Source: a virus (lineage: Duplodnaviria > Heunggongvirae > Uroviricota > Caudoviricetes). From it: 49,442 nt of DNA. Location of the stretch: IMG/VR virus record IMGVR_UViG_2537561691_000009; one strand, written 5' to 3'. The notes beneath the pieces were generated by a model. That model was not told the origin of the DNA, searched no databases, and saw only the letters and a program-made list of their open reading frames with translations. Shown in pieces: positions 1,586 to 21,972 of this stretch (positions are counted from its first letter, which is position 1; every line of letters begins with the position of its first letter). Both the position numbers and the translations under genes were made by a program.

Positions 1586-4057
1586 TTAAAAATCAGCCTG
1601 ATTCGGGATCAGTTTTTGCCAGATAACTGAAACGTATTTTGCCTGGTAACGGGCGTCATCAAGTGCATTATGGCGCTCACCTTCGAATGGAATAGCCGTT
1701 CTGGCATCGAAGTCTATGGCTTTCCCCAGCTCAACGATTGTGCGTACATCGCGATCGTTGTAGTAACGCCATGGGCAGGGGATCCCCTGCCGTTCGTATG
1801 AACGGCGCAAAATCGTGTTGTCGAAGTTGGCTCCATTTCCCCAGACCTGAACAAAAAATTCGCCGGAGTTTTCGTCGATAAATTCCCGCAATTGCAGCAG
1901 TGCATCATCTAACGGGATTTCATCGGTCAGAATGGCAGATTGCGCCTCCCGTGATTGCTTAAGCCACCATTTAATGGTGCCACGATCAATGACTCCGCCA
2001 GCAGTATCCATATCGATGGTCTTACTAAATTCCGGCCCCATATCTCCGGTTTGCGGATCGAAAAATATTGCACCTATTGAGATAAGCGGGGCATCGGGAT
2101 TTTTTCCCATGGTTTCAAGGTTGATCATCATGTGGTGCCACATTCTGCTGGTGGATGTGATAACGGGATGACCGTTCATCGCAATTAAGGGATCTGCCGT
2201 CTCGCCAGTTTCACTATCGCTGGCGTGATCCTGAGCGCTACCAGCATTCTCCTTGTGTGGATGTTCAGCGCCTTCCATTTCCTTCGGATCATTTTCCTGA
2301 ACTTCAACCTGATTCTCTTCATCGAATGTTTCCTGGTATGTTGCGTCGCCCATTACCGCGCCACAATCAGGGCAGTTGCCACCACCGCTTTGACCGCAGG
2401 CGGTGCAGACTTTTTCCGGTTCCTGTTGCGCTACTGGCTCAGGTTGTTTCGTTTCTGGCTCGTTTTGTAACGCATTTGGGCTGTTTTGTTCCGCTTTCTG
2501 GCCGTTCTGTTCCGTTTCTTGTTGGTTCTGATTCACTGAATCGCGGGTTTCAATCCCCTTCACCCATTTCGGATCATTCGGGTCGCTAATCCCTGCAACA
2601 AATTCACCACGTGATACAGCAAGCAACTTATTGGCGTCAGGCTGGCTGATATTGGCTGCCTGCATAATTTTGTTTACTTCGTCAGCGGTAACTTTTACCG
2701 GCTCTGGTTGTGCGATCGTGTCAGATGCACCAGTATTTTGTTGTGAACCTGAGTATGTACTGTTTTTGCGGGCGAAATATTCTTCTTTCGTGATTTCAGT
2801 AGCCCCGGCAGCCAGCGCCTTATCCAGACCAGAAAGTTTGTTTGCGCGACCGTATTTTTCGCCATCCTTGTCGGTGAAGAGGAAGTAGAACGGCCCTTCA
2901 CGCTCTACAGATGGTTCGACTTCCACTTTGCATTCGGTTTTTTCGTTGTCCGGAATTGCCGTTTCCACTGCATCAGTTTCTGGTACTGGCGACGAGAGAG
3001 TATCAGTTGCGCTCTGATTTCTTCCTTCATCTTCAAACACGCCCTTTGTAGTCAGGTATTCAGTAATGTATTTGTTCAGTGCCACAGGGTCTTTGTGAAT
3101 GTCGATCGGACGTTCACGGACAAGGCCAAAAATAGTCTGGCGGTCGTAGCGAAGGGCATCAGGCTGTTTGCGCATTGATGCCGAGATACGCTTCCAGTCT
3201 TCGCGGTCGTTGTCGATAACTTCATTTTTTGCCCAGCGATGGATGCTGCCGTCAATGTTTCCGGCATCCACATCACCAGGCCAGAGAGCGTAGGCCAGTT
3301 CGTCATCCAGTGTTTTCCATGTCTGCTTGTATTCGCGATGAATGGCAGCAATGACCGGGCTGATTTTTCCTGTTGAATTTTCACTGTGCTGTTGATTGGT
3401 TCTGGCGCGGGCGAGATCAACAACAGACGTGTATTTTCCGGTTTCCTTGCGTTCACCTTCGCGACGTTTTTTCCAGATGCGCATCTCTGCCTGAATTTCG
3501 GGCCATTTGGCACCAGGCTTACATTTATGCTTAACCCACCCGATGGCATGCAGCTTAAGCTCCGGATACATGGCGTTAACTTCTGGCATTTTCATCAACG
3601 CTTCAACGATATGTCCGTCGAATGTTGCCATGTCTTCCTGCAACAATTCCTGTGCGCTAATAACCATATCAACGGTGATGTTTTCACATGTGTCGAACTT
3701 AACCATGACAGCGTTCTGTACTTCAGGGGACAGCTTGTCAAAATTGACGTTCATCGGATCGGATTCTGGTTCGACCGGAATAAAGGAAGCGGATTCCTCA
3801 TCCCAGCGGTTTTCCTGCATATATTCAGCATCCCAGGAATCGAGGGCAGGGCGGGGTATACCGGGTTTATCCTCGCAGACAAGAAATTTATAAGCGCAGT
3901 CCTGAGCAGCCGGATAATGTTCCAGGAATTGCCAGTGAAATTTTGCGCGGGCGCGACGTTCATCACCGGCTTCAATGGCAGTGGCTACAGCGACGGCACC
4001 TTCTTCCTTTATTGCCTGTTCGTCCGGAATGGCGGCGCAAATAAAGACTTTACTCAT
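1586..4057 (-). CDS. Prophage exonuclease (exodeoxyribonuclease VIII-like) with C-terminal DnaQ/DEDD-type 3'-5' exonuclease domain and internal Cys4 zinc ribbon
   Basis: 823-aa ORF; C-terminal HNALDDA-type exonuclease motif; CTACG...CPDCG zinc-ribbon; early-left operon position. Confidence 0.75.
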   Translation of the reverse strand: MSKVFICAAIPDEQAIKEEGAVAVATAIEAGDERRARAKFHWQFLEHYPAAQDCAYKFLVCEDKPGIPRPALDSWDAEYMQENRWDEESASFIPVEPESDPMNVNFDKLSPEVQNAVMVKFDTCENITVDMVISAQELLQEDMATFDGHIVEALMKMPEVNAMYPELKLHAIGWVKHKCKPGAKWPEIQAEMRIWKKRREGERKETGKYTSVVDLARARTNQQHSENSTGKISPVIAAIHREYKQTWKTLDDELAYALWPGDVDAGNIDGSIHRWAKNEVIDNDREDWKRISASMRKQPDALRYDRQTIFGLVRERPIDIHKDPVALNKYITEYLTTKGVFEDEGRNQSATDTLSSPVPETDAVETAIPDNEKTECKVEVEPSVEREGPFYFLFTDKDGEKYGRANKLSGLDKALAAGATEITKEEYFARKNSTYSGSQQNTGASDTIAQPEPVKVTADEVNKIMQAANISQPDANKLLAVSRGEFVAGISDPNDPKWVKGIETRDSVNQNQQETEQNGQKAEQNSPNALQNEPETKQPEPVAQQEPEKVCTACGQSGGGNCPDCGAVMGDATYQETFDEENQVEVQENDPKEMEGAEHPHKENAGSAQDHASDSETGETADPLIAMNGHPVITSTSRMWHHMMINLETMGKNPDAPLISIGAIFFDPQTGDMGPEFSKTIDMDTAGGVIDRGTIKWWLKQSREAQSAILTDEIPLDDALLQLREFIDENSGEFFVQVWGNGANFDNTILRRSYERQGIPCPWRYYNDRDVRTIVELGKAIDFDARTAIPFEGERHNALDDARYQAKYVSVIWQKLIPNQADF

Positions 4058-4152
4058 TTTGTTTTAACCTCATTACAGATTTCAGGGTGAACGAATCCCT
4101 GCCATTGCTGGCATTTTTAATCCGTTGGTATGGCGTTAATATGGCTGGGGGG

Positions 4153-4341
4153 TTATCCAGCCGGGATTTCGTTATTCAGGTTCAGCGATACTTTTTTTAA
4201 CGGGAGGCATTCACCGGGGATTTTTTGTTCGTCCCTTACCTGAATGCAGGATGACTTACTGTCATAAATTCCGGTAATCACATTTTGTGGCTCACCCGTT
4301 ATAAGAAAAACGGTCATCACCAGTGCAAATGCTGAAGTCAC
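4153..4341 (-). CDS. Hypothetical small protein with hydrophobic N-terminus
   Basis: 62-aa ORF; ATGA overlap with upstream ORF suggests coupling. Confidence 0.4.
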   Translation of the reverse strand: MTSAFALVMTVFLITGEPQNVITGIYDSKSSCIQVRDEQKIPGECLPLKKVSLNLNNEIPAG

Positions 4342-4631
4342 TGCTGTTCTCCGATAATACCAAGTTCAAGAAGGGCAATTCTGGAAAGTATGGAATTATC
4401 ATTGAGAAGATAAGGTTCATATTTTCTCATCTTAATGGCATCTTCCGTAAACTCCCGGTTACTGAGCAGAACACCAATATCAAAACAACCTTCAGACGTA
4501 TTAACGTTTGGTAATAACGTTTCCATTATCGCGTCCTCAACAATGAATTTTGTGATGCGGTGCCTGGTGCCTCCAGGTGACGTTAACCAGTTAACAATTA
4601 ACGCCGGATACAGAGAATCCACCCATAACAC
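4338..4631 (-). CDS. Hypothetical early protein
   Basis: 97-aa ORF in early-left operon; start could be the internal Met. Confidence 0.4.
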   Translation of the reverse strand: MLWVDSLYPALIVNWLTSPGGTRHRITKFIVEDAIMETLLPNVNTSEGCFDIGVLLSNREFTEDAIKMRKYEPYLLNDNSILSRIALLELGIIGEQQ

Positions 4632-4888
4632 TGTTTTTGGTTTTAACTGTTCCGCGTGCGCTCAGCCGCATTCACCACATCACAAAATTCACTTTAAAAA
4701 GGGCGGCAGAGCAGTCACGGAGTAAAACTGATACCGCCAAACGTCACCAGAAAATTGATAACAGAGGGCGTTGCAGCGGAGTTGTCACTTAAGCGTATGG
4801 TCAACCTGACAACCCGGTGTCCTCAACGGAGGAAGAAATAACCCCGCCATACTTACCGCCGCGCCATTTCGCGGAGTGCCACAACCGG

Positions 4889-8782: not shown

Positions 8783-9139
8783 ATGGAAATAAAACCAGAG
8801 GATGAGTTAAGCAATATCGTTTTATTTCCGGTAAAAGAGGATGACCCTCGTAATCAGGTTAATTTTCTTTATGAGCCATCGGAAAGACCATATTGTCATC
8901 ACGCCTCTGTCCGGGTTGACGAAAAAGAGCGTCAGGTCCGCTGTAAAATCTGCGGTGCAGTTGTGGAGCCATTTGACTGGATGCTCTCTGTGGCGAAAAG
9001 AGAAACCAGACTGGCAGATGATGTAAGGCTCTTGCGTCAAGAGGAGCGGGAAAGGCGAAAAAATATAGAAAAGCTAATTCAGATTGAGCGTAACGCGAAA
9101 GCGCGGATACGCAGGGCGACAAAATCCAGAACTGAATAA
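8783..9139 (+). CDS. Hypothetical protein with CxxC...CxxC zinc-ribbon-like motif
   Basis: Start placed at MEIKPEDE behind aaaggagaggagc SD; CHH...CKICG cysteines. Confidence 0.5.
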   Translation: MEIKPEDELSNIVLFPVKEDDPRNQVNFLYEPSERPYCHHASVRVDEKERQVRCKICGAVVEPFDWMLSVAKRETRLADDVRLLRQEERERRKNIEKLIQIERNAKARIRRATKSRTE

Positions 9140-9232
9140 TTAAATTTAGCTCTGTTAAAAATTTAATCCTTAACCGGAGGGATTTCTGCACCCTCAGAAC
9201 ATCAGGAGGCCGCCCGAAAGGGCGGTAGTTAA

Positions 9233-9415
9233 ATGCGAAAGTTTAAAATAATTATTGAAACGGGAATAGCCGGTGGAGATTTCGAGGATGAATTCGAAGT
9301 GGATGATGATGCGACGCCTGATGAAATACATGACGAAGCAAAAGATATTTTCTTTAACTACTGCAATTACTCATATCACGAAATAAAAGACGAAGAGGAA
9401 GAACAAAATGGCTGA
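9233..9415 (+). CDS. Small highly acidic protein, 60 aa
   Basis: About one third D/E residues; overlapping start with next ORF (ATGGCTGA). Confidence 0.5.
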   Translation: MRKFKIIIETGIAGGDFEDEFEVDDDATPDEIHDEAKDIFFNYCNYSYHEIKDEEEEQNG

Positions 9416-9584
9416 TTTTGGTTCAACTAAATACAACGTCAGTTTTGAAGAATGGCATGAACTGTTAATGGACTATGCAGAGTTACGTGGTGGCAGTGCT
9501 GCTGATGCTGAAGCATGGCGGGATGATTATGAAGCAGGAAAAACTCCGGTCGAAGCATATTGTGATGAGTGGGGCGATGAATGA
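9408..9584 (+). CDS. Small acidic protein, 58 aa (MADFGSTKYNVSFEEWHELLMDYAELRGG...)
   Basis: Hand-translated, below track threshold; translationally coupled to flanking ORFs via ATGA-type overlaps. Confidence 0.45.
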   Translation: MADFGSTKYNVSFEEWHELLMDYAELRGGSAADAEAWRDDYEAGKTPVEAYCDEWGDE

Positions 9585-9838
9585 GCGAGGTTAATTATCA
9601 GGAAGGGCATGAAACGGCGGGGCAAGCAAAAACAGTGGCATGGCGATATCGCTACGTGAAAAAAAAGGCGTTACGGACTTTCAGGGGAAGTAGTGGTCTG
9701 GTGACTGGAAATATGTACCGAAAAAAGAGGATTGTAACGACAGGCCGAACTATGAAATTCAGGCCTTATTCACTGCCCCGCCAGTCCCGGTTACATCAGA
9801 AGAACTGGTTAAAGCTGTGCACTTTTATGAACAACTAA
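9581..9838 (+). CDS. Hypothetical basic protein
   Basis: 85-aa ORF with start overlapping the previous stop. Confidence 0.35.
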   Translation: MSEVNYQEGHETAGQAKTVAWRYRYVKKKALRTFRGSSGLVTGNMYRKKRIVTTGRTMKFRPYSLPRQSRLHQKNWLKLCTFMNN

Positions 9839-10067
9839 AACGCGAAAATCCACCAGCATCCGGAAACCTGATTACAGATTCCCAGATAAGGCAATGAGCT
9901 ACCTGGCGCAGAACGGGCTGATAAGTATGGGGAATGTTTTACGATGAATATTTAGACTAAAGAGTTTGTAACGCTATGTAAGTGATTTTTTCTGGTTTAG
10001 ATATTTATATATCCGGCCAAATTGAGGTGTGTTTAAATGTAATTGCACATTGATTGTAGGAGGAATA

Positions 10068-10247
10068 ATGAAAAACGCATTGCAGTTTTTGTTTGTTGCG
10101 TTCTGGTTGTTCGTATCATGTATGCCCATCATCTTCACAGCAAGGTATATGGAAAAAGTTGATGTTTTGATATTAATATTTGGATATATAAATGCCCTTT
10201 TTTTAGGGGTGTTCATGGCGGTCATGTGCATTGAATACTGGCGGTAA
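10068..10247 (+). CDS. Small hydrophobic membrane protein, 59 aa, two predicted TM segments
   Basis: Strong SD (taggagga) 5 nt upstream of ATG; hydrophobic sequence; AT-rich upstream region. Confidence 0.5.
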   Translation: MKNALQFLFVAFWLFVSCMPIIFTARYMEKVDVLILIFGYINALFLGVFMAVMCIEYWR

Positions 10248-10379
10248 ATACAGCGAACGCCATTGGTTTAGTTGGATATTTACTGTGCCGGACAAAAACG
10301 GTTTGCGGGGAAATCTTAGTTAAGTAGAATGACTGCGGGTGCTTGAGGCTATCTGTCTCAGGCATGAACACCAAAAGGC

Positions 10380-10460
10380 AGATAGAGAAAAGCCCCAGTT
10401 AACATTACGCGTCCTGCAAGACGCTTAACATTAATCTGAGGCCATATCTATGCTCTACAC
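10380..10460 (-). ncRNA. sok: Putative Sok-like antisense RNA region (approximate)
   Basis: Inferred from hok/sok locus architecture (antisense RNA overlapping mok start); boundaries not determinable from sequence alone. Confidence 0.3.
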
Positions 10461-10662
10461 ACGTAGGTTAGCCTCTTACGTGCCGAAAGGCAAGGAGAAG
10501 CAGGCTATGAAGCAGCAAAAGGCGATGCTAATCGCCCTGATCGTCATCTGTTTAACCGTCATAGTGACGGCACTGGTAACGAGGAAAGACCTCTGCGAGG
10601 TACGAATCCGAACCGGCCAGACGGAGGTCGCTGTCTTCACAGCTTACGAACCTGAGGAGTAA
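10450..10662 (+). CDS. mok: Mok (modulator of killing) overlapping reading frame
   Basis: 70-aa ORF in frame with and extending upstream of hok. Confidence 0.55.
   Translation: MLYTRRLASYVPKGKEKQAMKQQKAMLIALIVICLTVIVTALVTRKDLCEVRIRTGQTEVAVFTAYEPEE
10507..10662 (+). CDS. hok: Hok/Gef family type I toxin, 51 aa
   Basis: MKQQKAMLIALIVICLTVIVTALVTRKDLCEVRIRTGQTEVAVFTAYEPEE has Hok-family TM helix and conserved C-terminal motif; 5' leader resembles hok mRNA leaders. Confidence 0.85.
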   Translation: MKQQKAMLIALIVICLTVIVTALVTRKDLCEVRIRTGQTEVAVFTAYEPEE

Positions 10663-10730
10663 GAGACCAGGCGGGGGAGAATCCCTCGCCACCTCTGATG
10701 TGTCAGGCATCCTCAACGCACCCGCACTTA

Positions 10731-10756
10731 ACCCGCTTCGGCGGGTTTTGTTTTTT
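10731..10756 (+). terminator. Rho-independent terminator after hok (cccgc-ttcg-gcggg + T-run)
   Basis: GC hairpin followed by ttttgtttttt. Confidence 0.55.
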
Positions 10757-10828
10757 CCTGGCATTCTGGTTTACAATTCGCACGTCAGCCTGAACACCTG
10801 ACACCTGCTGCGCCAGCAGAGAAAACAG

Positions 10829-11101
10829 ATGGCGCACAAAACCAAATTTCACAATTCTGATACCGACCTTGCCATCCGGCATGAGCGGCGTTCACACGCA
10901 TTTAAAACCGACTGGTACCAACACCCACCATGTACTGAAGAACAGGCCGAATGGCTGATTCATAACTACCGCAGACGTGGATATGAGTTTAGGAAAGCCC
11001 TCACCCTCGATTATCGTCACTGGATAATCTACGTCAGACTCCCTTATTCCGAACGCCCACCGCGTCCGTCCCGCACATTCCAGCAACGGATCTGGAGGTA
11101 A
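10829..11101 (+). CDS. Hypothetical protein
   Basis: 90-aa ORF upstream of DUF968-like gene. Confidence 0.45.
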   Translation: MAHKTKFHNSDTDLAIRHERRSHAFKTDWYQHPPCTEEQAEWLIHNYRRRGYEFRKALTLDYRHWIIYVRLPYSERPPRPSRTFQQRIWR

Positions 11102-11102
11102 C

Positions 11103-12161
11103 GTGCGGGTATTACTTCGATCTGTTCCGGTACCGGAACTTGGGCTGGTGGTCCTTAAGCCTGGTCGTGAATCCATGCAGGTATTCCGCAGCGGTCGTGT
11201 ACTGGTGGAGCCGGAACCGAAAAGCATGCGCGGTCTGCCGTCCGGAGTCGTTCCTGCCGTTCGCCAGCCATTGGCGGAGGATAAATCACTACTGCCATTT
11301 TTCAGCGATGAGCGGGTGATTCGTGCTGCTGGCGGTGCTGGTGCGCTGTCTGACTGGCTGTTACGCCACGTTAAATCCTGCCAGTGGCCTCATGGTGACT
11401 ATCATCACAGTGAAATCGTCATACATCGTTACGGTACCGGCGCGATGGTGTTGTGCTGGCACTGCGACAACCAGCTGCGTGACCAGACCTCCGAATCACT
11501 CGGGCAACTTGCTCATCAAAACCTGTCAGCATGGATGATTGACGTCATACGCCATGCAGTGAATGGCACGCAGGAGCGGGAATTATCGCTGGCTGAATTG
11601 TGCTGCTGGGCTTCTGTAAATGATGTAGTGGATGCCATGACCGAAAATATGGCGCGTCGAATCCTGAAGCTTCCGGGTGAAAAAATCCGCTCAGTATACC
11701 GCGAGAGCGACATCGTACCGGGAGAGCAGACCGCCATCAGCATACTGAAGCAGCGCACAAAAAATATTGCGCCGTTGCCTCACGCCCACCAGCAACAGAA
11801 TCCACCACAGGAAAAGACGGTGGTCAGCATTGCCGTTGATCCGGAGTCACCGGCTCAGTATCTCCAGCGCCAGAAACCACAACGGGAAGAGATGCCTGTA
11901 TACACGCGCTGGGTAAAAACGCAGAAATGCATGACGTGTGGCAATCAGGCAGATGATCCGCATCACATCATTGGTCATGGACTGGGAGGGATGGGAACAA
12001 AGGCTGATGATTTGTTTGTTATTCCGCTGTGCCGTAAATGCCATAGCGAACTACACGCCGGGGTAAAAGATTTTGAAGAAAAACACGGCAGCCAGCTGTT
12101 GTTGCTGATTCGTTTTTTAATGCACGCGAGAAATTCGGGTGTCCTGAAGTGGAAAGCATGA
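11103..12161 (+). CDS. DUF968/YdfU-like protein with C-terminal Cys/His-rich motif
   Basis: 352-aa ORF; C-terminal CMTCG...HHIIGHG...CRKCH motif; directly upstream of rusA. Confidence 0.65.
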   Translation: MRVLLRSVPVPELGLVVLKPGRESMQVFRSGRVLVEPEPKSMRGLPSGVVPAVRQPLAEDKSLLPFFSDERVIRAAGGAGALSDWLLRHVKSCQWPHGDYHHSEIVIHRYGTGAMVLCWHCDNQLRDQTSESLGQLAHQNLSAWMIDVIRHAVNGTQERELSLAELCCWASVNDVVDAMTENMARRILKLPGEKIRSVYRESDIVPGEQTAISILKQRTKNIAPLPHAHQQQNPPQEKTVVSIAVDPESPAQYLQRQKPQREEMPVYTRWVKTQKCMTCGNQADDPHHIIGHGLGGMGTKADDLFVIPLCRKCHSELHAGVKDFEEKHGSQLLLLIRFLMHARNSGVLKWKA

Positions 12162-12527
12162 ATGACTGAACGCATAGAATTTGTTTTGCCTTACCCGCCA
12201 ACGGTGAACACTTACTGGCGACGTCGTGGCAGCACATATTTTGTATCAAAAGCCGGTGAGCGTTATCGCCGTGATGTGGCGCTTATTGTTCGCCAGCAGC
12301 GGCTGAAATTAAACCTGTCCGGAAGGCTGGCGATAAAGATTATTGCAGAGCCACCGGATAAACGTCGTCGTGACCTGGACAATATCCTGAAAGCACCACT
12401 GGATGCGCTGACGCATGCCGGACTTCTCATAGACGACGAGCAGTTTGATGAAATCAATATTGTGCGCGGTCAGCGCGTTCCTGGGGGGCGGCTGGGCGTG
12501 AAGATTTACAAAATTGAGAGTGAGTGA
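12162..12527 (+). CDS. rusA: Holliday junction resolvase RusA
   Basis: 121-aa ORF with RusA-like sequence (LPYPPTVNTYWR..., acidic catalytic residues); nin-region position. Confidence 0.85.
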   Translation: MTERIEFVLPYPPTVNTYWRRRGSTYFVSKAGERYRRDVALIVRQQRLKLNLSGRLAIKIIAEPPDKRRRDLDNILKAPLDALTHAGLLIDDEQFDEINIVRGQRVPGGRLGVKIYKIESE

Positions 12528-12535
12528 TCGTAAAT

Positions 12536-13081
12536 ATGATATATCCGGAAATTACAGGCAAAAGCGGCGAGCATTTACGTCTAAAAACGCTGGAAGCCGT
12601 CTGGATCCAGGGGAAATTACGGATGTGGGGGCGTTGGTCGTACATAGGTGGTGGCAAACCAGGAAATATGTTCAATCAGTTGCTGGCATCCAAAACACTT
12701 ACAAAAACTGCGATCAATGAAGCTCTGCGCAGAATAAAAAAATCAGGGATTGATAAAACTGAGCTGGAAGCGTTTTTGCGTGAGATGATCAACAGCAAGC
12801 AAAAGAGCGGGCTGGCTTATTGTACTGATGCCGAGGCGTTATGTATCGATCGGGTAATTAGTAAAGTGTTGGCAGAGCATCCGGGATTGATTTGTATCCT
12901 CCGACAAAGATATGAAGGGCTGGGAATGAGCAAGCTGAAAATGGCAGAACAGTTAAAAAAGAATCACCCTGACTGGAGCCTGAAAACTTGTAGAAATCGC
13001 ATTGATGTTTGGTTGGCGATGGCTGAAACCATGCTTTTCCTTCCAATGTGCGTGGCACTTCGGTGCTTTTCTGATAACTGA
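12536..13081 (+). CDS. Putative late-gene antiterminator Q
   Basis: About 181 aa directly after rusA; RMWGRWSY motif reminiscent of Q-family antiterminators; position before late/lysis region. Confidence 0.6.
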   Translation: MIYPEITGKSGEHLRLKTLEAVWIQGKLRMWGRWSYIGGGKPGNMFNQLLASKTLTKTAINEALRRIKKSGIDKTELEAFLREMINSKQKSGLAYCTDAEALCIDRVISKVLAEHPGLICILRQRYEGLGMSKLKMAEQLKKNHPDWSLKTCRNRIDVWLAMAETMLFLPMCVALRCFSDN

Positions 13082-13109
13082 TGATAGAAGTGCATCAGCT
13101 ATCAATCTT

Positions 13110-13138
13110 GTTGACGTTCATCAAGGTCTGGACAATAC
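13110..13138 (+). promoter_or_regulatory. Candidate sigma70 promoter downstream of Q (ttgacg-17 nt-aatact), possible pR'-like late promoter
   Basis: -35/-10-like hexamers read by eye with 17-bp spacing; untested. Confidence 0.25.
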
Positions 13139-13170
13139 TTACGTTAAGTTCCAACATATGGAAGATAAGA

Positions 13171-14361
13171 ATGATATTTACACGATTGAGATTTATCAAT
13201 TTGTACGCTTTTGAGGATGCAGAGCTTAACCTGTCCTATCCAAGGAAACCTGTAAACATGCCTCTTGATGGGGAGTTTTTGGCTGGACGGCCTAAATTTT
13301 ACTATAAAAAAGTCTGTATCATAACGGGGGGAAATGCTTCAGGCAAGACGTCACTAGGGCGAATTCTTTGTGGAATTCAGGTGTTTCTAAGAACCAAAGA
13401 GTTGCGGAGTAATCTGCGAGTGAATAATAAAAATAATGATGCTTCGTTTGAAGTAGACTTTGCTACGGAGGAACATTTTCATCATCGTTTGTATGTACGC
13501 TTTGCTACCAGTGAAGGCGGAGCGCACATAATCAAAGAAATTAAATATGGTTTTGTTCAAATAGCATTAAATGATTCTTGCTATAAAACCACAGAAAAAC
13601 TGAATCAACTCTTTTCTGGAAGGGCCCCAGGAGATACAGAATATTTTTTTCAGGAACTAGCTACTGATAGCGAACCAGTTGTATTGGAGTTTTTCAAGCA
13701 ACTTAAGTTTTTTGGTGGATGGTACTATTTGTTGTCTGAAACTAAAGAAAGTACCACTGCAATTTCAGGAATGAATAAAAATATTCTTGAAAGGATAATT
13801 CGCACTTTCGATTCAAGTATTATAGGAGTTACCGAGATGCTGGAGTCTGAAAGTGACGGGGATGAAAATAAATCATCTGCGGTTTATCTGATTAAATTTA
13901 AAAACTCTGATTCTCTTGTCGTTACCAGTAAAGGTGAAATAATTAACTCAGACCGTCTTTCTCGAGGAACATACGAGGCAGTGACGGTAGCGCATTTTAT
14001 AAGCGCTATTATCTCTGATTGTGAAAGACTAGGTAAGCAATCTCTAATACCATCAATGACTTATTTTCTTGACGAGAAATTGGCTTATACACATTCAGAG
14101 TTAGAGCGTATGATTGTGGCGCTGATTATATCTAATTTGAAAGAAAATACTCAGTTTTTCTATACAACGCATAACATGGATATTTTTGAGTTGGATCTGC
14201 CTGTTCACTCGTTCATTTTTATTAAAAAAACGAAAGACTATTCGGAGTTTGTTGAAGCAAATTCAGTTGTTAAAAAAAATGACCGTAGCATGCGAAACGC
14301 TGTTGAGAGAGATGTCTTTGGTGTCTTACCTGACACATCATTAGTATCGGAGCTACTCTGA
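13171..14361 (+). CDS. P-loop ABC-type ATPase (AAA_21/AAA_15-like; AbiLi/RloA/AriA-like)
   Basis: Walker A GGNASGKTS near N-terminus; later YFLDE (Walker B-like) and TTHN (H-loop-like); start placed at MIFTRLRFINLY; AT-rich codon usage. Confidence 0.75.
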   Translation: MIFTRLRFINLYAFEDAELNLSYPRKPVNMPLDGEFLAGRPKFYYKKVCIITGGNASGKTSLGRILCGIQVFLRTKELRSNLRVNNKNNDASFEVDFATEEHFHHRLYVRFATSEGGAHIIKEIKYGFVQIALNDSCYKTTEKLNQLFSGRAPGDTEYFFQELATDSEPVVLEFFKQLKFFGGWYYLLSETKESTTAISGMNKNILERIIRTFDSSIIGVTEMLESESDGDENKSSAVYLIKFKNSDSLVVTSKGEIINSDRLSRGTYEAVTVAHFISAIISDCERLGKQSLIPSMTYFLDEKLAYTHSELERMIVALIISNLKENTQFFYTTHNMDIFELDLPVHSFIFIKKTKDYSEFVEANSVVKKNDRSMRNAVERDVFGVLPDTSLVSELL

Positions 14362-14894
14362 TGGCGGGGTTGTCTAAAATAAGAATAATTTTTGTCGAAG
14401 GTGAAACAGAAAACTCTCTTTTTCAGAAGATGAAACAACAGAGAGTTATTGATGCCAAATCAATTGTAAAAAGAAACTTTTGGCAAGAGAGCATAAGAAA
14501 TTATGCGATTACTATTCCGAAGGGAAGTGATATACTAATTGTCTTTGATAGTGATGAAGTGGAGCAATCTGCAAGATTCATTGAAAATGTAAAGTTCCTT
14601 AAAAACAGAGGGCATAAAGTTTATCTTTTGCAGCAGAAAAGAAATTTTGAGGAGGAGTTGGCCTGGTGTTGCGGAATTCCTGTAAAAAAACTAATTGCTG
14701 GGTTCTGTGCAAAAAAAACATCGGGTATAAATGATTTCAAGAGAGATTTTATTGCTTGTAACAATCAACTTTCAAAGTTACTGAAAATGGGCATGCAGGA
14801 AACTAAGTGGTTTACAAGAGATTTACATACTGTATTGGAGCCTGTTGCAAGTTTTAAGTCATCTTTTTCTAAACATTTCAGGTTAACAAGATGA
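14361..14894 (+). CDS. Small Toprim-like protein (RloB/AbiLii/OLD-Toprim-like), 177 aa
   Basis: N-terminal IIFVEGETE plus downstream VFDSDE (acidic E...DxD Toprim-like pattern); start ATG overlaps ATPase stop (TGATG). Confidence 0.65.
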   Translation: MAGLSKIRIIFVEGETENSLFQKMKQQRVIDAKSIVKRNFWQESIRNYAITIPKGSDILIVFDSDEVEQSARFIENVKFLKNRGHKVYLLQQKRNFEEELAWCCGIPVKKLIAGFCAKKTSGINDFKRDFIACNNQLSKLLKMGMQETKWFTRDLHTVLEPVASFKSSFSKHFRLTR

Positions 14895-15524: not shown

Positions 15525-16574
15525 ATGGCTAATACTGTAAAAATATCCAGTTGTGAGTTAATCAACGCTGATTGCCTGGAATTTATCCAGACCTTACCGG
15601 AAAACTCTGTCGATCTTATAGTCACAGACCCGCCATACTTTAAAGTGAAACCCGAGGGCTGGGATAACCAGTGGAAGGGCGACGATGATTACCTGAAGTG
15701 GCTGGACCAGTGTCTGGCGCAGTTCTGGCGGGTGCTGAAACCTGTCGGAAGTCTTTACCTGTTCTGTGGTCATCGCCTGGCATCTGATATCGAAATCATG
15801 ATGCGTGAACGCTTCAGTGTGCTGAACCATATTATCTGGGCGAAGCCGTCCGGACGCTGGAACGGATGCAACAAGGAAAGCCTGCGGGCGTATTCCCCCG
15901 CCACAGAGCGCATTCTGTTCGCGGAACATTATCAGGGGCCGTATCGTCCGAAAGATGCCGGGTATGCGGCGAAGGGCAGTGCACTGAAACAGCATGTGAT
16001 GGCCCCGCTGATTTCTTACTTTCGTGATGCGCGCGCGGCCCTGGGGATAACGGCAAAACAGATTGCAGATGCCACAGGAAAGAAAAACATGGTGTCGCAC
16101 TGGTTCAGTGCCAGTCAGTGGCAGCTACCGAACGAAAGCGATTATCTGAAATTACAGTCGCTGTTTGCCCGGGTGGCAGAAGAGAAACATCAGCGCGGTG
16201 AACTGGAAAAGCCCCACCACCAGCTGGTGGATACGTATACGTCACTGAACCGGCAGTATGTGGAGCTGCAGAGTGAATATAAGCATCTGCGGCGGTATTT
16301 TGGTGTGACGGCGCAGGTGCCGTACACGGATGTGTGGACACATAAACCGGTGCAGTTCTATCCCGGGAAACATCCGTGCGAAAAACCGGCAGAAATGCTG
16401 CAGCAGATAATCAGCGCAAGCAGTCGTCCGGGAGACCTGGTTGCAGATTTTTTTATGGGCTCAGGTTCAACGGTAAAAGCTGCACTGGCGCTCGGGCGTC
16501 GTGCGATTGGCGTTGAACTGGAGACCGGACGTTTTGAGCAGACAGTCAGGGAAGTTCAGGATTTAATCGTTTGA
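15525..16574 (+). CDS. DNA N6-adenine methyltransferase (DPPY motif)
   Basis: 349-aa ORF with VTDPPYF catalytic motif near N-terminus and SAM-binding-like region near C-terminus; no adjacent restriction endonuclease evident. Confidence 0.85.
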   Translation: MANTVKISSCELINADCLEFIQTLPENSVDLIVTDPPYFKVKPEGWDNQWKGDDDYLKWLDQCLAQFWRVLKPVGSLYLFCGHRLASDIEIMMRERFSVLNHIIWAKPSGRWNGCNKESLRAYSPATERILFAEHYQGPYRPKDAGYAAKGSALKQHVMAPLISYFRDARAALGITAKQIADATGKKNMVSHWFSASQWQLPNESDYLKLQSLFARVAEEKHQRGELEKPHHQLVDTYTSLNRQYVELQSEYKHLRRYFGVTAQVPYTDVWTHKPVQFYPGKHPCEKPAEMLQQIISASSRPGDLVADFFMGSGSTVKAALALGRRAIGVELETGRFEQTVREVQDLIV

Positions 16575-16623: not shown

Positions 16624-16699
16624 GGCCCTTTAGCTCAGTGGTGAGAGCGAGCGACTCATAATCGCCAGGTCGCTGGTTCAAATCCAGCAAGGGCCACCA
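16624..16699 (+). tRNA. tRNA with CAU anticodon (Ile2/ileZ-like, or Met)
   Basis: Cloverleaf parsed by hand: acceptor ggccctt/aagggcc, anticodon loop ctCATaa, T-loop ttcaaat, 3' CCA. Confidence 0.8.
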
Positions 16700-16706
16700 T
16701 CACATA

Positions 16707-16783
16707 CCGCCATTAGCTCATCAGGAAAGAGCGCCAGCCTTCGAAGCTGGTTGCGCGGGGTTCAAGTCCCCGATGGCGGTCCA
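16707..16783 (+). tRNA. tRNA-Arg (anticodon UCG)
   Basis: Acceptor ccgccat/atggcgg, anticodon loop ctTCGaa, T-loop ttcaagt, 3' CCA. Confidence 0.8.
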
Positions 16784-16796
16784 TTATCTGCATCAT

Positions 16797-16873
16797 GCGT
16801 TGTTAGCTCAGCCGGACAGAGCAATTGCCTTCTAAGCAATCGGTCACTGGTTCGAATCCAGTACAACGCGCCA
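16797..16873 (+). tRNA. tRNA-Arg (anticodon UCU)
   Basis: Acceptor gcgttgt/acaacgc, anticodon stem attgc/gcaat, loop ctTCTaa, T-loop ttcgaat, 3' CCA. Confidence 0.8.
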
Positions 16874-20672: not shown

Positions 20673-21206
20673 ATGAACGCAAAAATCAGATACGGCCTGT
20701 CGGCTGCCGTTCTGGCGCTGATTGCCGCTGGTGCGCCTGCGCCTGACATTCTCGACCAGTTTCTGGATGAAAAGGAAGGTAACCACACCACGGCATACCG
20801 TGATGGCGCGGGTATCTGGACCATCTGCCGCGGTGCCATCCTGGTGGATGGCAAACCTGTCGTTCCGGGCATGAAGTTGTCGAAGGAAAAATGCGACCGG
20901 GTTAACGCCATTGAGCGTGATAAGGCGCTGGCATGGGTGGAGAAAAACATCAAAGTGCCATTGAGCGAACCCCAGAAAGCGGGGATCGCGTCATTCTGTC
21001 CGTACAACATTGGTCCCGGTAAGTGTTTCCCGTCGACGTTTTATAAACGAATTAATGCAGGTGATCGCAGGGGAGCGTGTGAGGCGATTCGCTGGTGGAT
21101 TAAGGACGGTGGCAGAGACTGCCGTATTCGTTCAAACAACTGCTACGGTCAGGTATCCCGTCGTGACCAGGAGAGCGCGCTGGCGTGCTGGGGTATCGAC
21201 AGATAA
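20673..21206 (+). CDS. R: SAR endolysin (T4-lysozyme-like muramidase with N-terminal signal-anchor-release domain)
   Basis: 177 aa; hydrophobic Gly/Ala-rich N-terminal segment then lysozyme-like core; position after holin. Confidence 0.88.
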   Translation: MNAKIRYGLSAAVLALIAAGAPAPDILDQFLDEKEGNHTTAYRDGAGIWTICRGAILVDGKPVVPGMKLSKEKCDRVNAIERDKALAWVEKNIKVPLSEPQKAGIASFCPYNIGPGKCFPSTFYKRINAGDRRGACEAIRWWIKDGGRDCRIRSNNCYGQVSRRDQESALACWGIDR

Positions 21207-21504: not shown

Positions 21505-21972
21505 ATGAACCGCGTACTGTGCGTGGTCATCATTGCCCTGCTGGTGGCCTGTGGTGCGCTTAGTCTGGGGCTGAATCATTACCGTGATAACGCCATAACC
21601 TACAAAGAGCAGCGCGATAAAAAAGTCAGTGAGCTGGAGCAGGCAAATGCAACCATTACTGATATGCAGCAGCGCCAGCGTGATGTTGCTGCACTTGATG
21701 CCAGATACTCGAGGGAATTAGCCGATGCGAGAGCTGAAAATGAAACTCTGCGCGCTGACGTTGCCGCTGGTCGTAAGCGCCTGCGGATCAACGCCACCTG
21801 CCCCGGTACCGTGCGTGAAGCCCCCACCACCTCCGGCGTGGATAATGCAACCGGCCCCCGACTGGCAGACACCGCTGAACGGGATTATTTCACTCTCAGA
21901 GAGCGGTTGATGCTGATGCAGAAGCAGCTGGAAGTGGCGCAGGAATATATCCGCACTCAGTGCCTGAAATAA
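21505..21972 (+). CDS. Rz: Spanin inner-membrane subunit Rz
   Basis: 155 aa; N-terminal TM then coiled-coil; follows endolysin. Confidence 0.85.
   Translation: MNRVLCVVIIALLVACGALSLGLNHYRDNAITYKEQRDKKVSELEQANATITDMQQRQRDVAALDARYSRELADARAENETLRADVAAGRKRLRINATCPGTVREAPTTSGVDNATGPRLADTAERDYFTLRERLMLMQKQLEVAQEYIRTQCLK
21740..21910 (+). CDS. Rz1: Spanin outer-membrane lipoprotein Rz1 (embedded in Rz, +1 frame)
   Basis: MKLCALTLPLVVSAC lipobox then Pro-rich sequence; fully nested inside Rz. Confidence 0.8.
   Translation: MKLCALTLPLVVSACGSTPPAPVPCVKPPPPPAWIMQPAPDWQTPLNGIISLSESG

Follow-up and report, generated by a model that had tools for sequence, protein, structure and literature searches.

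Does the short reading frame that lies immediately upstream of a hok/sok locus in a lambdoid prophage of Escherichia coli encode a protein and, if so, what kind of protein would it be? The window, that is, the whole stretch of 49,442 nt that was analysed, is an entire E. coli prophage of the lambdoid type, and positions 9900-10700 were 100% identical to many chromosomes (e.g. strain ST648). The initial annotation, made from the letters alone, had described a 59-aa hydrophobic ORF with a near-consensus Shine-Dalgarno (SD) sequence, placed in an AT-rich stretch beside GC-normal genes, in a prophage accessory position just upstream of hok. Each element of this description was borne out by the features of the locus:

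9581..9947, plus strand: upstream neighbour, a frameshifted pseudogene, outside the cassette
9948..10067, no strand assigned: AT-rich leader/intergenic stretch, co-inherited with the small ORF (locus survey)
10058-10063, plus strand: SD sequence AGGAGG, within TAGGAGGA (10057-10064), 4-nt spacer to the ATG
10068..10247, plus strand: small gene of 59 aa, ATG to TAA (ORF list; MKNALQFLFVAFWLFVSCMPIIFTARYMEKVDVLILIFGYINALFLGVFMAVMCIEYWR)
10248..10336, plus strand: spacer separating the small gene from the hok transcript (sequence)
10337..10512, plus strand: 5' part of the hok mRNA, sok antisense region (Rfam RF01794, 117 bits, E = 2e-27)
10450..10662, plus strand: mok-like overlapping frame, 70 aa (ORF list)
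10507..10662, plus strand: hok toxin gene, 51 aa (Pfam HOK_GEF, 1.2e-23 at 10507-10659; annotated as hokD by PGAP in identical loci)
10730..10747, plus strand: intrinsic-terminator-like hairpin with T run, end of the hok transcript (terminator scan)

Prophage setting and translation signals

The prophage genes run in the order integrase, early genes, YdaT-like, O-like, DUF977, small genes and the 59-aa ORF, followed by hok/sok, a 90-aa phrog_1212 protein, DUF968 (YdfU-like), RusA, Q, and the lysis and structural genes. This order places the ORF among the nin-type accessory genes of the early-right operon, all of them on the plus strand, with the replication genes on one side and DUF968/RusA/Q on the other. 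The upstream neighbour (9581..9947) carries the PGAP remark 'frameshifted; internal stop' in matching RefSeq loci and is a pseudogene in most matching genomes, while an intact 204-aa form was found in strain EBJ003 (WP_369759143.1; L005). In some relatives a rem gene is located between hok and the 90-aa phrog_1212 gene (L005 3967..4218; L007 3980..4231); rem is absent from the window, where position 10760 runs straight to 10829.

The reading frame opens with ATG at 10068, ends with TAA at 10247 and encodes a protein with a GRAVY of 1.31. The duplex between its SD sequence and the 3' end of 16S rRNA had an energy of -10.2 kcal/mol, which falls in the top 1% of random window positions, compared with a median of -5.7 kcal/mol for the 22 long-ORF starts of the prophage. 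A common variant with G at 10061 (AGGGGG) gave -9.3 kcal/mol, and a strong SD site is retained in both major haplotypes. Between 9900 and 10299 the GC content was 0.33-0.385, lower than in the two flanks, where it was 0.45-0.56 (about 0.5 on each side).

A second clade and evidence of coding constraint

Homologues obtained with a word-index search, before HMMER was applied, were all either E. coli/Shigella sequences at least 90% identical to the ORF or broken versions of it. An exhaustive HMMER search recovered a second clade, clade B (P0043/P0037; MRKILMYLCISIWIVISCVPIILTSEYLTEASIMALMFGHANALCIGVFISIIYIECWR), at E = 3.7e-9, and the locus provides an example of an 'orphan' small ORF rescued by exhaustive profile searching. 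The clade B protein is exactly 59 aa long and aligned with the clade A protein from residue 1 to 59 in both, free of gaps, at 41% identity. The DNA of the two clades formed a gap-free 180-nt alignment with 59% identity, whereas alignment of the flanks required several indels. Identity at codon positions 1, 2 and 3 was 0.58, 0.73 and 0.47 (chi-square p = 0.018), and the comparison of clade A with clade B gave a pN of 0.33, a pS of 0.72 and a dN/dS of about 0.19. When the clade A ORF was mutated neutrally in simulation up to the A/B divergence, the probability that the frame stayed open was 0.026 and the probability that it stayed open with at least 24 identical residues was 3.5e-4. Because of the codon-position pattern, the dN/dS of about 0.19 and the simulation result (0.035%), we conclude, on this comparison of clades, that the plus-strand ORF codes for a protein, or did so through most of its history. 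A homologue of the same length, 41% identical and with constraint at the protein level, strengthens the original description of the locus as a small gene.

Clade B also bears on the position of the start codon. It has in-frame stops just 5' of the ATG, which argues that this start is conserved; for the same reason a 72-aa form beginning at GTG 10029, called in some GenBank records, was rejected. The GC content of clade B was also about 0.32. No third clade was detected by word-index profile search, metagenome scan, GTDB genome scan or tblastn of phages and plasmids, and the searches taken together show a family of two clades that appears to be restricted to Escherichia and Shigella prophage DNA.

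Distribution and existing annotation

Of 5426 complete E. coli genomes, 1570 carried clade A, surveyed as a 396-bp module and never below 95% identity, and 1043 carried clade B; the exact 59-aa protein occurred on at least 1000 contigs. PGAP annotation of the 59-aa ORF was absent in all five RefSeq records inspected, and no annotation lay under the clade B match among the full-length matches listed. The labels attached to the sequence in GenBank and UniProt were only 'hypothetical', 'uncharacterized' or 'putative membrane protein', and a literature search with the peptide strings of both clades returned no paper, while broader queries yielded background on hokW only. If the ORF is translated, about 1/5 to 1/3 of complete E. 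coli genomes would carry a conserved small membrane protein that is left out of the inspected RefSeq records and is covered by no family database.

Association with hok/sok

The small gene is located 90 nt 5' of the hok/mok/sok locus, and the intervening spacer holds a likely hok promoter (TTTGCG at 10301-10306, a gap of 17 nt, then TAGAAT at 10324-10329), which the consensus scan did not list. In a survey of 162 clade A loci, the gene kept its leader, its spacer and the hok 5' region in all but one of the loci that extended far enough, and the genes farther upstream varied in about 15; the left recombination boundary of the cassette was at about 9912-9948. The hok coding sequence was missing or displaced in about 35 of the 162 loci; the small gene itself remained, as did the 5' (sok) part of hok. 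In phage PhiR42_1 and E. coli W (L003 and L004, about 3600-4730) a transposase gene is found at the hok start.

The clade B gene lies in about 2.3 kb of residual prophage DNA at ttcA, the Rac attachment site (L091 3984..6170); this DNA also contains an AT-rich stretch. The genes of the region are arranged as zntB, dbpA, ttcA, an integrase fragment, the small gene, ABC-3 gene fragments, uspF and ompN. About 55 nt 3' of the clade B stop codon, 66 nt from the 3' half of hok survive; that sequence matched hokD genes at about 80%, and did so in thousands of genomes. No other gene of the ttcA remnant appears to be intact, and copies of the locus sharing at least 99% identity were present in about 1000 genomes, among them that of the E. 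coli type strain. Since members of both clades lie directly 5' of a hok locus, gene order shows the small gene and hok/sok to be an old two-gene cassette of lambdoid prophages. The small gene, if functional, would act independently of Hok, because clade B keeps it intact even though hok is truncated.

Homology to hokW of phage 933W begins at about 10294. In prophage Sp5, hokW-sokW has been shown to work as a toxin-antitoxin pair and to promote the release of phage (PMC8621323), in a study that does not deal with the 59-aa ORF. As the match to the Sp5 hok locus begins only at about 10294, Sp5 would, by homology, be without the small ORF.

Scanning for signals of expression yielded no sigma-70 consensus promoter in 9948..10067, and consensus scans for promoters and terminators around the small gene in both clades gave nothing above chance; the only terminator-like site nearby is that at 10730-10747, after hok. 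The simplest route to transcription would be read-through within the early-right (nin) operon on prophage induction, and the strong SD site would then make the small gene well translated. By composition the gene resembles a moron, with its GC content of 0.33-0.385 against about 0.5 around it and a similarly low value in clade B; neither a promoter nor a terminator of its own was found around it in these scans. A structured RNA was also considered for this region and was dropped because the folds of 9990-10130 and 9948-10340 were no more stable than those of shuffled sequences (z = 0.12 and -1.0).

Predicted structure of the protein

The suggestion that the product is a two-helix membrane protein agreed with both of the predictions made. 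Kyte-Doolittle profiles with 19-residue windows peaked at 2.26 (residues ~4-25) and 2.39 (~31-55), with a trough at the loop RYMEKVD, and AlphaFold2 run on the single sequence placed helices at residues 3-24 and 31-58 with a mean pLDDT of 83.7. Both describe a hairpin, for which the predicted layout is TM1 at ~3-24, a loop at 25-30 and TM2 at ~31-58; the C-terminal tail is only four residues long (EYWR). The basic N-terminus (MK or MRK), the neutral-to-acidic loop and the IExWR tail lead us to predict an N-in/C-in topology with a periplasmic loop of 6-8 residues.

The motifs SCxPIIxT, FGxxNALxxGVF and IExWR are conserved between clades A and B. In the alignment of the two clades the 21 invariant residues were M1, L5, L8, W13, S17, C18, P20, I21, I22, T24, L36, F38, G39, N42, A43, L44, V48, F49, E56, W58 and R59, with G47 replaced by Val in one clade B sequence and otherwise kept. 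The family can be recognised in both clades by its length of 59 aa, its position directly 5' of the hok locus and the motifs W13, S17-C18-x-P20-I21-I22-x-T24, F38-G39-x-x-N42-A43-L44 and E56-x-W58-R59. One face of TM2 (G39, N42, A43, G47) combines a G-xxx-A-xxx-G pattern with a mid-membrane Asn and would form a helix-packing surface together with the small and polar residues S17, C18, P20 and T24 of TM1, where S17, P20 and T24 fall on one side of the helix. Small or polar helix faces of this kind mediate tight helix packing or oligomerisation. We therefore propose a hairpin that either oligomerises or binds to a different membrane protein in order to act, and its role may be an accessory one at the level of the membrane.

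Within-clade variation and the possibility of decay

We consider it probable that 10068..10247 is genuinely protein-coding, that its product is a membrane hairpin and that it forms a cassette with hok. The best reading of the gene itself is that it represents an orphan family, new and apparently taxonomically restricted, whose members are small membrane proteins of prophages and are inherited with hok/sok as one cassette.

Variation within the clades gave a different picture from the divergence between them, and it is here that the reading as a former gene has to be weighed, namely that the family was once selected and the window copy is now neutral DNA in mostly defective prophages. The 157 full-length copies of clade A had one synonymous and nine non-synonymous variable sites, and polymorphism within the clades came to one synonymous and 11 non-synonymous. 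By hand calculation the 1:11 ratio fits neutrality (P about 0.29) and rejects a dN/dS of 0.19 (P about 8e-4); an MK-like comparison of polymorphism with divergence did not reach significance (p = 0.09). The ORF was only marginally less variable than its flanks (7/180 sites versus 15/166), a similarity that also favours decay, as does the presence of pseudogenes next to it. On the other side, 156 of the 157 full-length copies of clade A and all 13 of clade B were intact, in a sample of loci that was gathered by peptide matches and is hence biased towards intact ORFs. Moreover, the clade B frame has been kept in a remnant in which the integrase and hok are truncated, and the SD site is strong in both major haplotypes. 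Divergence within the clades did not exceed 3.4%, which leaves little power for detecting purifying selection, and several of the variants were singletons.

Broken forms recur among the copies. A run of seven T within the ORF (10198..10204, plus strand) is a recurrent frameshift site, giving products that end in ...FFRGVHGGHVH; the frameshifted proteins (P0019, P0021, P0024, P0025 and P0028) occurred on at least three haplotype backgrounds and could reflect either real slippage or sequencing error. In further protein variants the ORF is fused to unrelated sequence, and these look like insertions or rearrangements. Such frameshifts and fusions are in keeping with decay, and so at first sight is one locus (L010, '53% identical'), which at the DNA level is a near-identical copy carrying three 1-nt deletions and a 3-nt insertion, with the SD sequence destroyed and the frame lost. 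Its state could be true decay or in part a homopolymer assembly error, and for this reason it was counted neither way. Singletons and homopolymer errors may have inflated the within-clade signal as a whole. Weighing both sides, we regard decay of a former gene as rather unlikely; in present-day, largely cryptic prophages the small gene seems to be under relaxed constraint or costly. The locus serves as an example of how long-term constraint and recent polymorphism may disagree in prophage genes.

Candidate functions and remaining alternatives

No match to the 59-aa protein was found in Pfam (E <= 1), PHROGs, NCBIfam or PADLOC, or in a profile search of PDB sequences, and Foldseek against the PDB returned only generic helical hairpins (E > 4). 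The functions first put forward (toxin, superinfection-exclusion factor or holin-like protein) were confirmed by none of the analyses: family and fold matches were lacking, the features of a holin were not seen, and an antisense RNA was not detected in the searches described below. For a functional hairpin in the hok cassette, a role as a membrane-perturbing toxin, in abortive infection or in exclusion is a tentative suggestion. Exclusion proteins such as T4 Imm and HK97 gp15 are likewise small inner-membrane proteins in accessory phage positions, and the AT-rich, moron-like composition is a further likeness, but the 59-aa protein matched no PHROG or PADLOC model, nor any defence or superinfection-exclusion model in PADLOC, PHROG or Pfam. 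Toxins of the GhoT/OrtT type in E. coli are small membrane proteins with two helices, and the resemblance extends to a length of about 57-59 aa, two predicted transmembrane helices and almost no soluble part; however, the 59-aa protein had no Pfam, NCBIfam or HMMER similarity to them, and no GhoS-like partner gene lies nearby.

It is doubtful that the gene is a second type I toxin beside hok, restrained by an antisense or structured RNA that escaped detection. Its small size, marked hydrophobicity (GRAVY 1.31), strong SD site and position adjoining a true type I locus would all suit such a toxin, and recurrent inactivating variants are expected of a costly gene. Like the Hok/Gef toxins (PF01848), it is small, hydrophobic and prophage-borne, and it is on the same strand as hok and linked to it in both clades. 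Members of the HOK_GEF type have one transmembrane helix and a periplasmic tail containing Cys, and known type I toxins mostly have one helix. The 59-aa protein, by contrast, has two helices, lacks sequence similarity to Hok/Gef and has no Pfam match (the neighbouring hok scores 1.2e-23), and in clade B it has outlasted the truncation of hok. Nor was a mok-like leader frame, a sok-like RNA or a fold-back structure detected for the small gene: in an Rfam scan of 9000-11500 sok was the sole match, leaving none in 9898-10336, and the mRNA folds did not differ from shuffles, as given above. The minus strand of clade A had no promoter-like site, in a consensus scan that can miss an RNA, and the minus-strand promoter-consensus matches of clade B were, by our own reading of the alignment, not conserved in clade A.

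The hairpin might instead be a third component of a hok/sok subfamily, either as a partner, modulator or immunity factor of Hok or as a second toxin co-regulated by read-through into the hok transcript, which we take to be a long shot. If true, it would explain the joint travel of both genes through at least two deeply diverged lineages. A de novo origin of the family within prophages of Escherichia is a comparably long shot. A function as partner or neighbour could change how hok/sok loci are read, given that hok/sok is a much-studied toxin-antitoxin system and that a prophage copy of it affects phage release (PMC8621323).

That the frame is a chance ORF in an AT- and T-rich spacer or regulatory DNA, in which T-rich DNA simply reads as hydrophobic codons, is very improbable. 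When positions 9948-10293 were shuffled 5000 times with dinucleotides preserved, 12.5% of the shuffles had an ATG-initiated ORF of 59 aa or longer on either strand (5.8% on the plus strand), and the lack of a PGAP call in the five inspected records and the empty promoter scan point the same way. Yet only 0.6% of the shuffles gave an ORF that reached 50 aa and had two hydrophobic peaks, a figure that does not count in the SD site, which is itself in the top 1% of positions. Together with the codon periodicity, the low dN/dS and the equal-length, gap-free frame that persists at 59% nucleotide identity (simulation p = 3.5e-4), the comparison of clades A and B largely refutes a chance origin.

A holin- or antiholin-like protein of class II or pinholin type, acting in lysis timing, has even less in its favour. 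Class II holins and pinholin S21 have two transmembrane helices and a predicted N-in/C-in topology, as does the 59-aa protein, and the small-residue face of its TM2 (G39xxxA43xxxG47), which is glycine-zipper-like, is a further likeness. The 59-aa protein nevertheless lacks a dual start and a charged cytoplasmic C-terminal tail, ending in EYWR only, and it matched no Pfam or PHROG holin family. The lysozyme (20673..21206) and Rz (21505..21972) genes are about 10 kb away, and clade B persists with no lysis genes nearby.

Lastly, an antisense ORF of 85 aa (9974..10231, minus strand), open in clade A and called by the annotators of phages vB_EcoS-640R1 and PhiR42_1, is almost certainly not the real gene and was rejected, as it has two in-frame stops in clade B, no family match and the low-complexity, N/K-rich composition expected opposite a hydrophobic gene. 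The phage records ON470612.1 and ON470619.1 label it 'hornerin', and PV340562.1 labels it hypothetical. Because of the two stops in clade B, the deposited antisense annotations are on the wrong strand, and two of the phage annotations provide an example of this error.

Other features of the prophage

Farther along the prophage, positions 13081..14894 encode a 426-aa AAA_15 ATPase (PADLOC AbiLi model, 9.6e-26) followed by an overlapping 177-aa ORF that had no family match. The two genes are flanked by the Q antiterminator (12524..13081) and a DNA methylase (15525..16574), and look like an AbiL-type two-gene defence insert of the prophage. Three tRNA genes (Met-CAT, Arg-TCG and Arg-TCT) occupy 16624..16873, 3' of the methylase and 5' of the lysis region, a placement that is the same as in Stx-type lambdoid phages.
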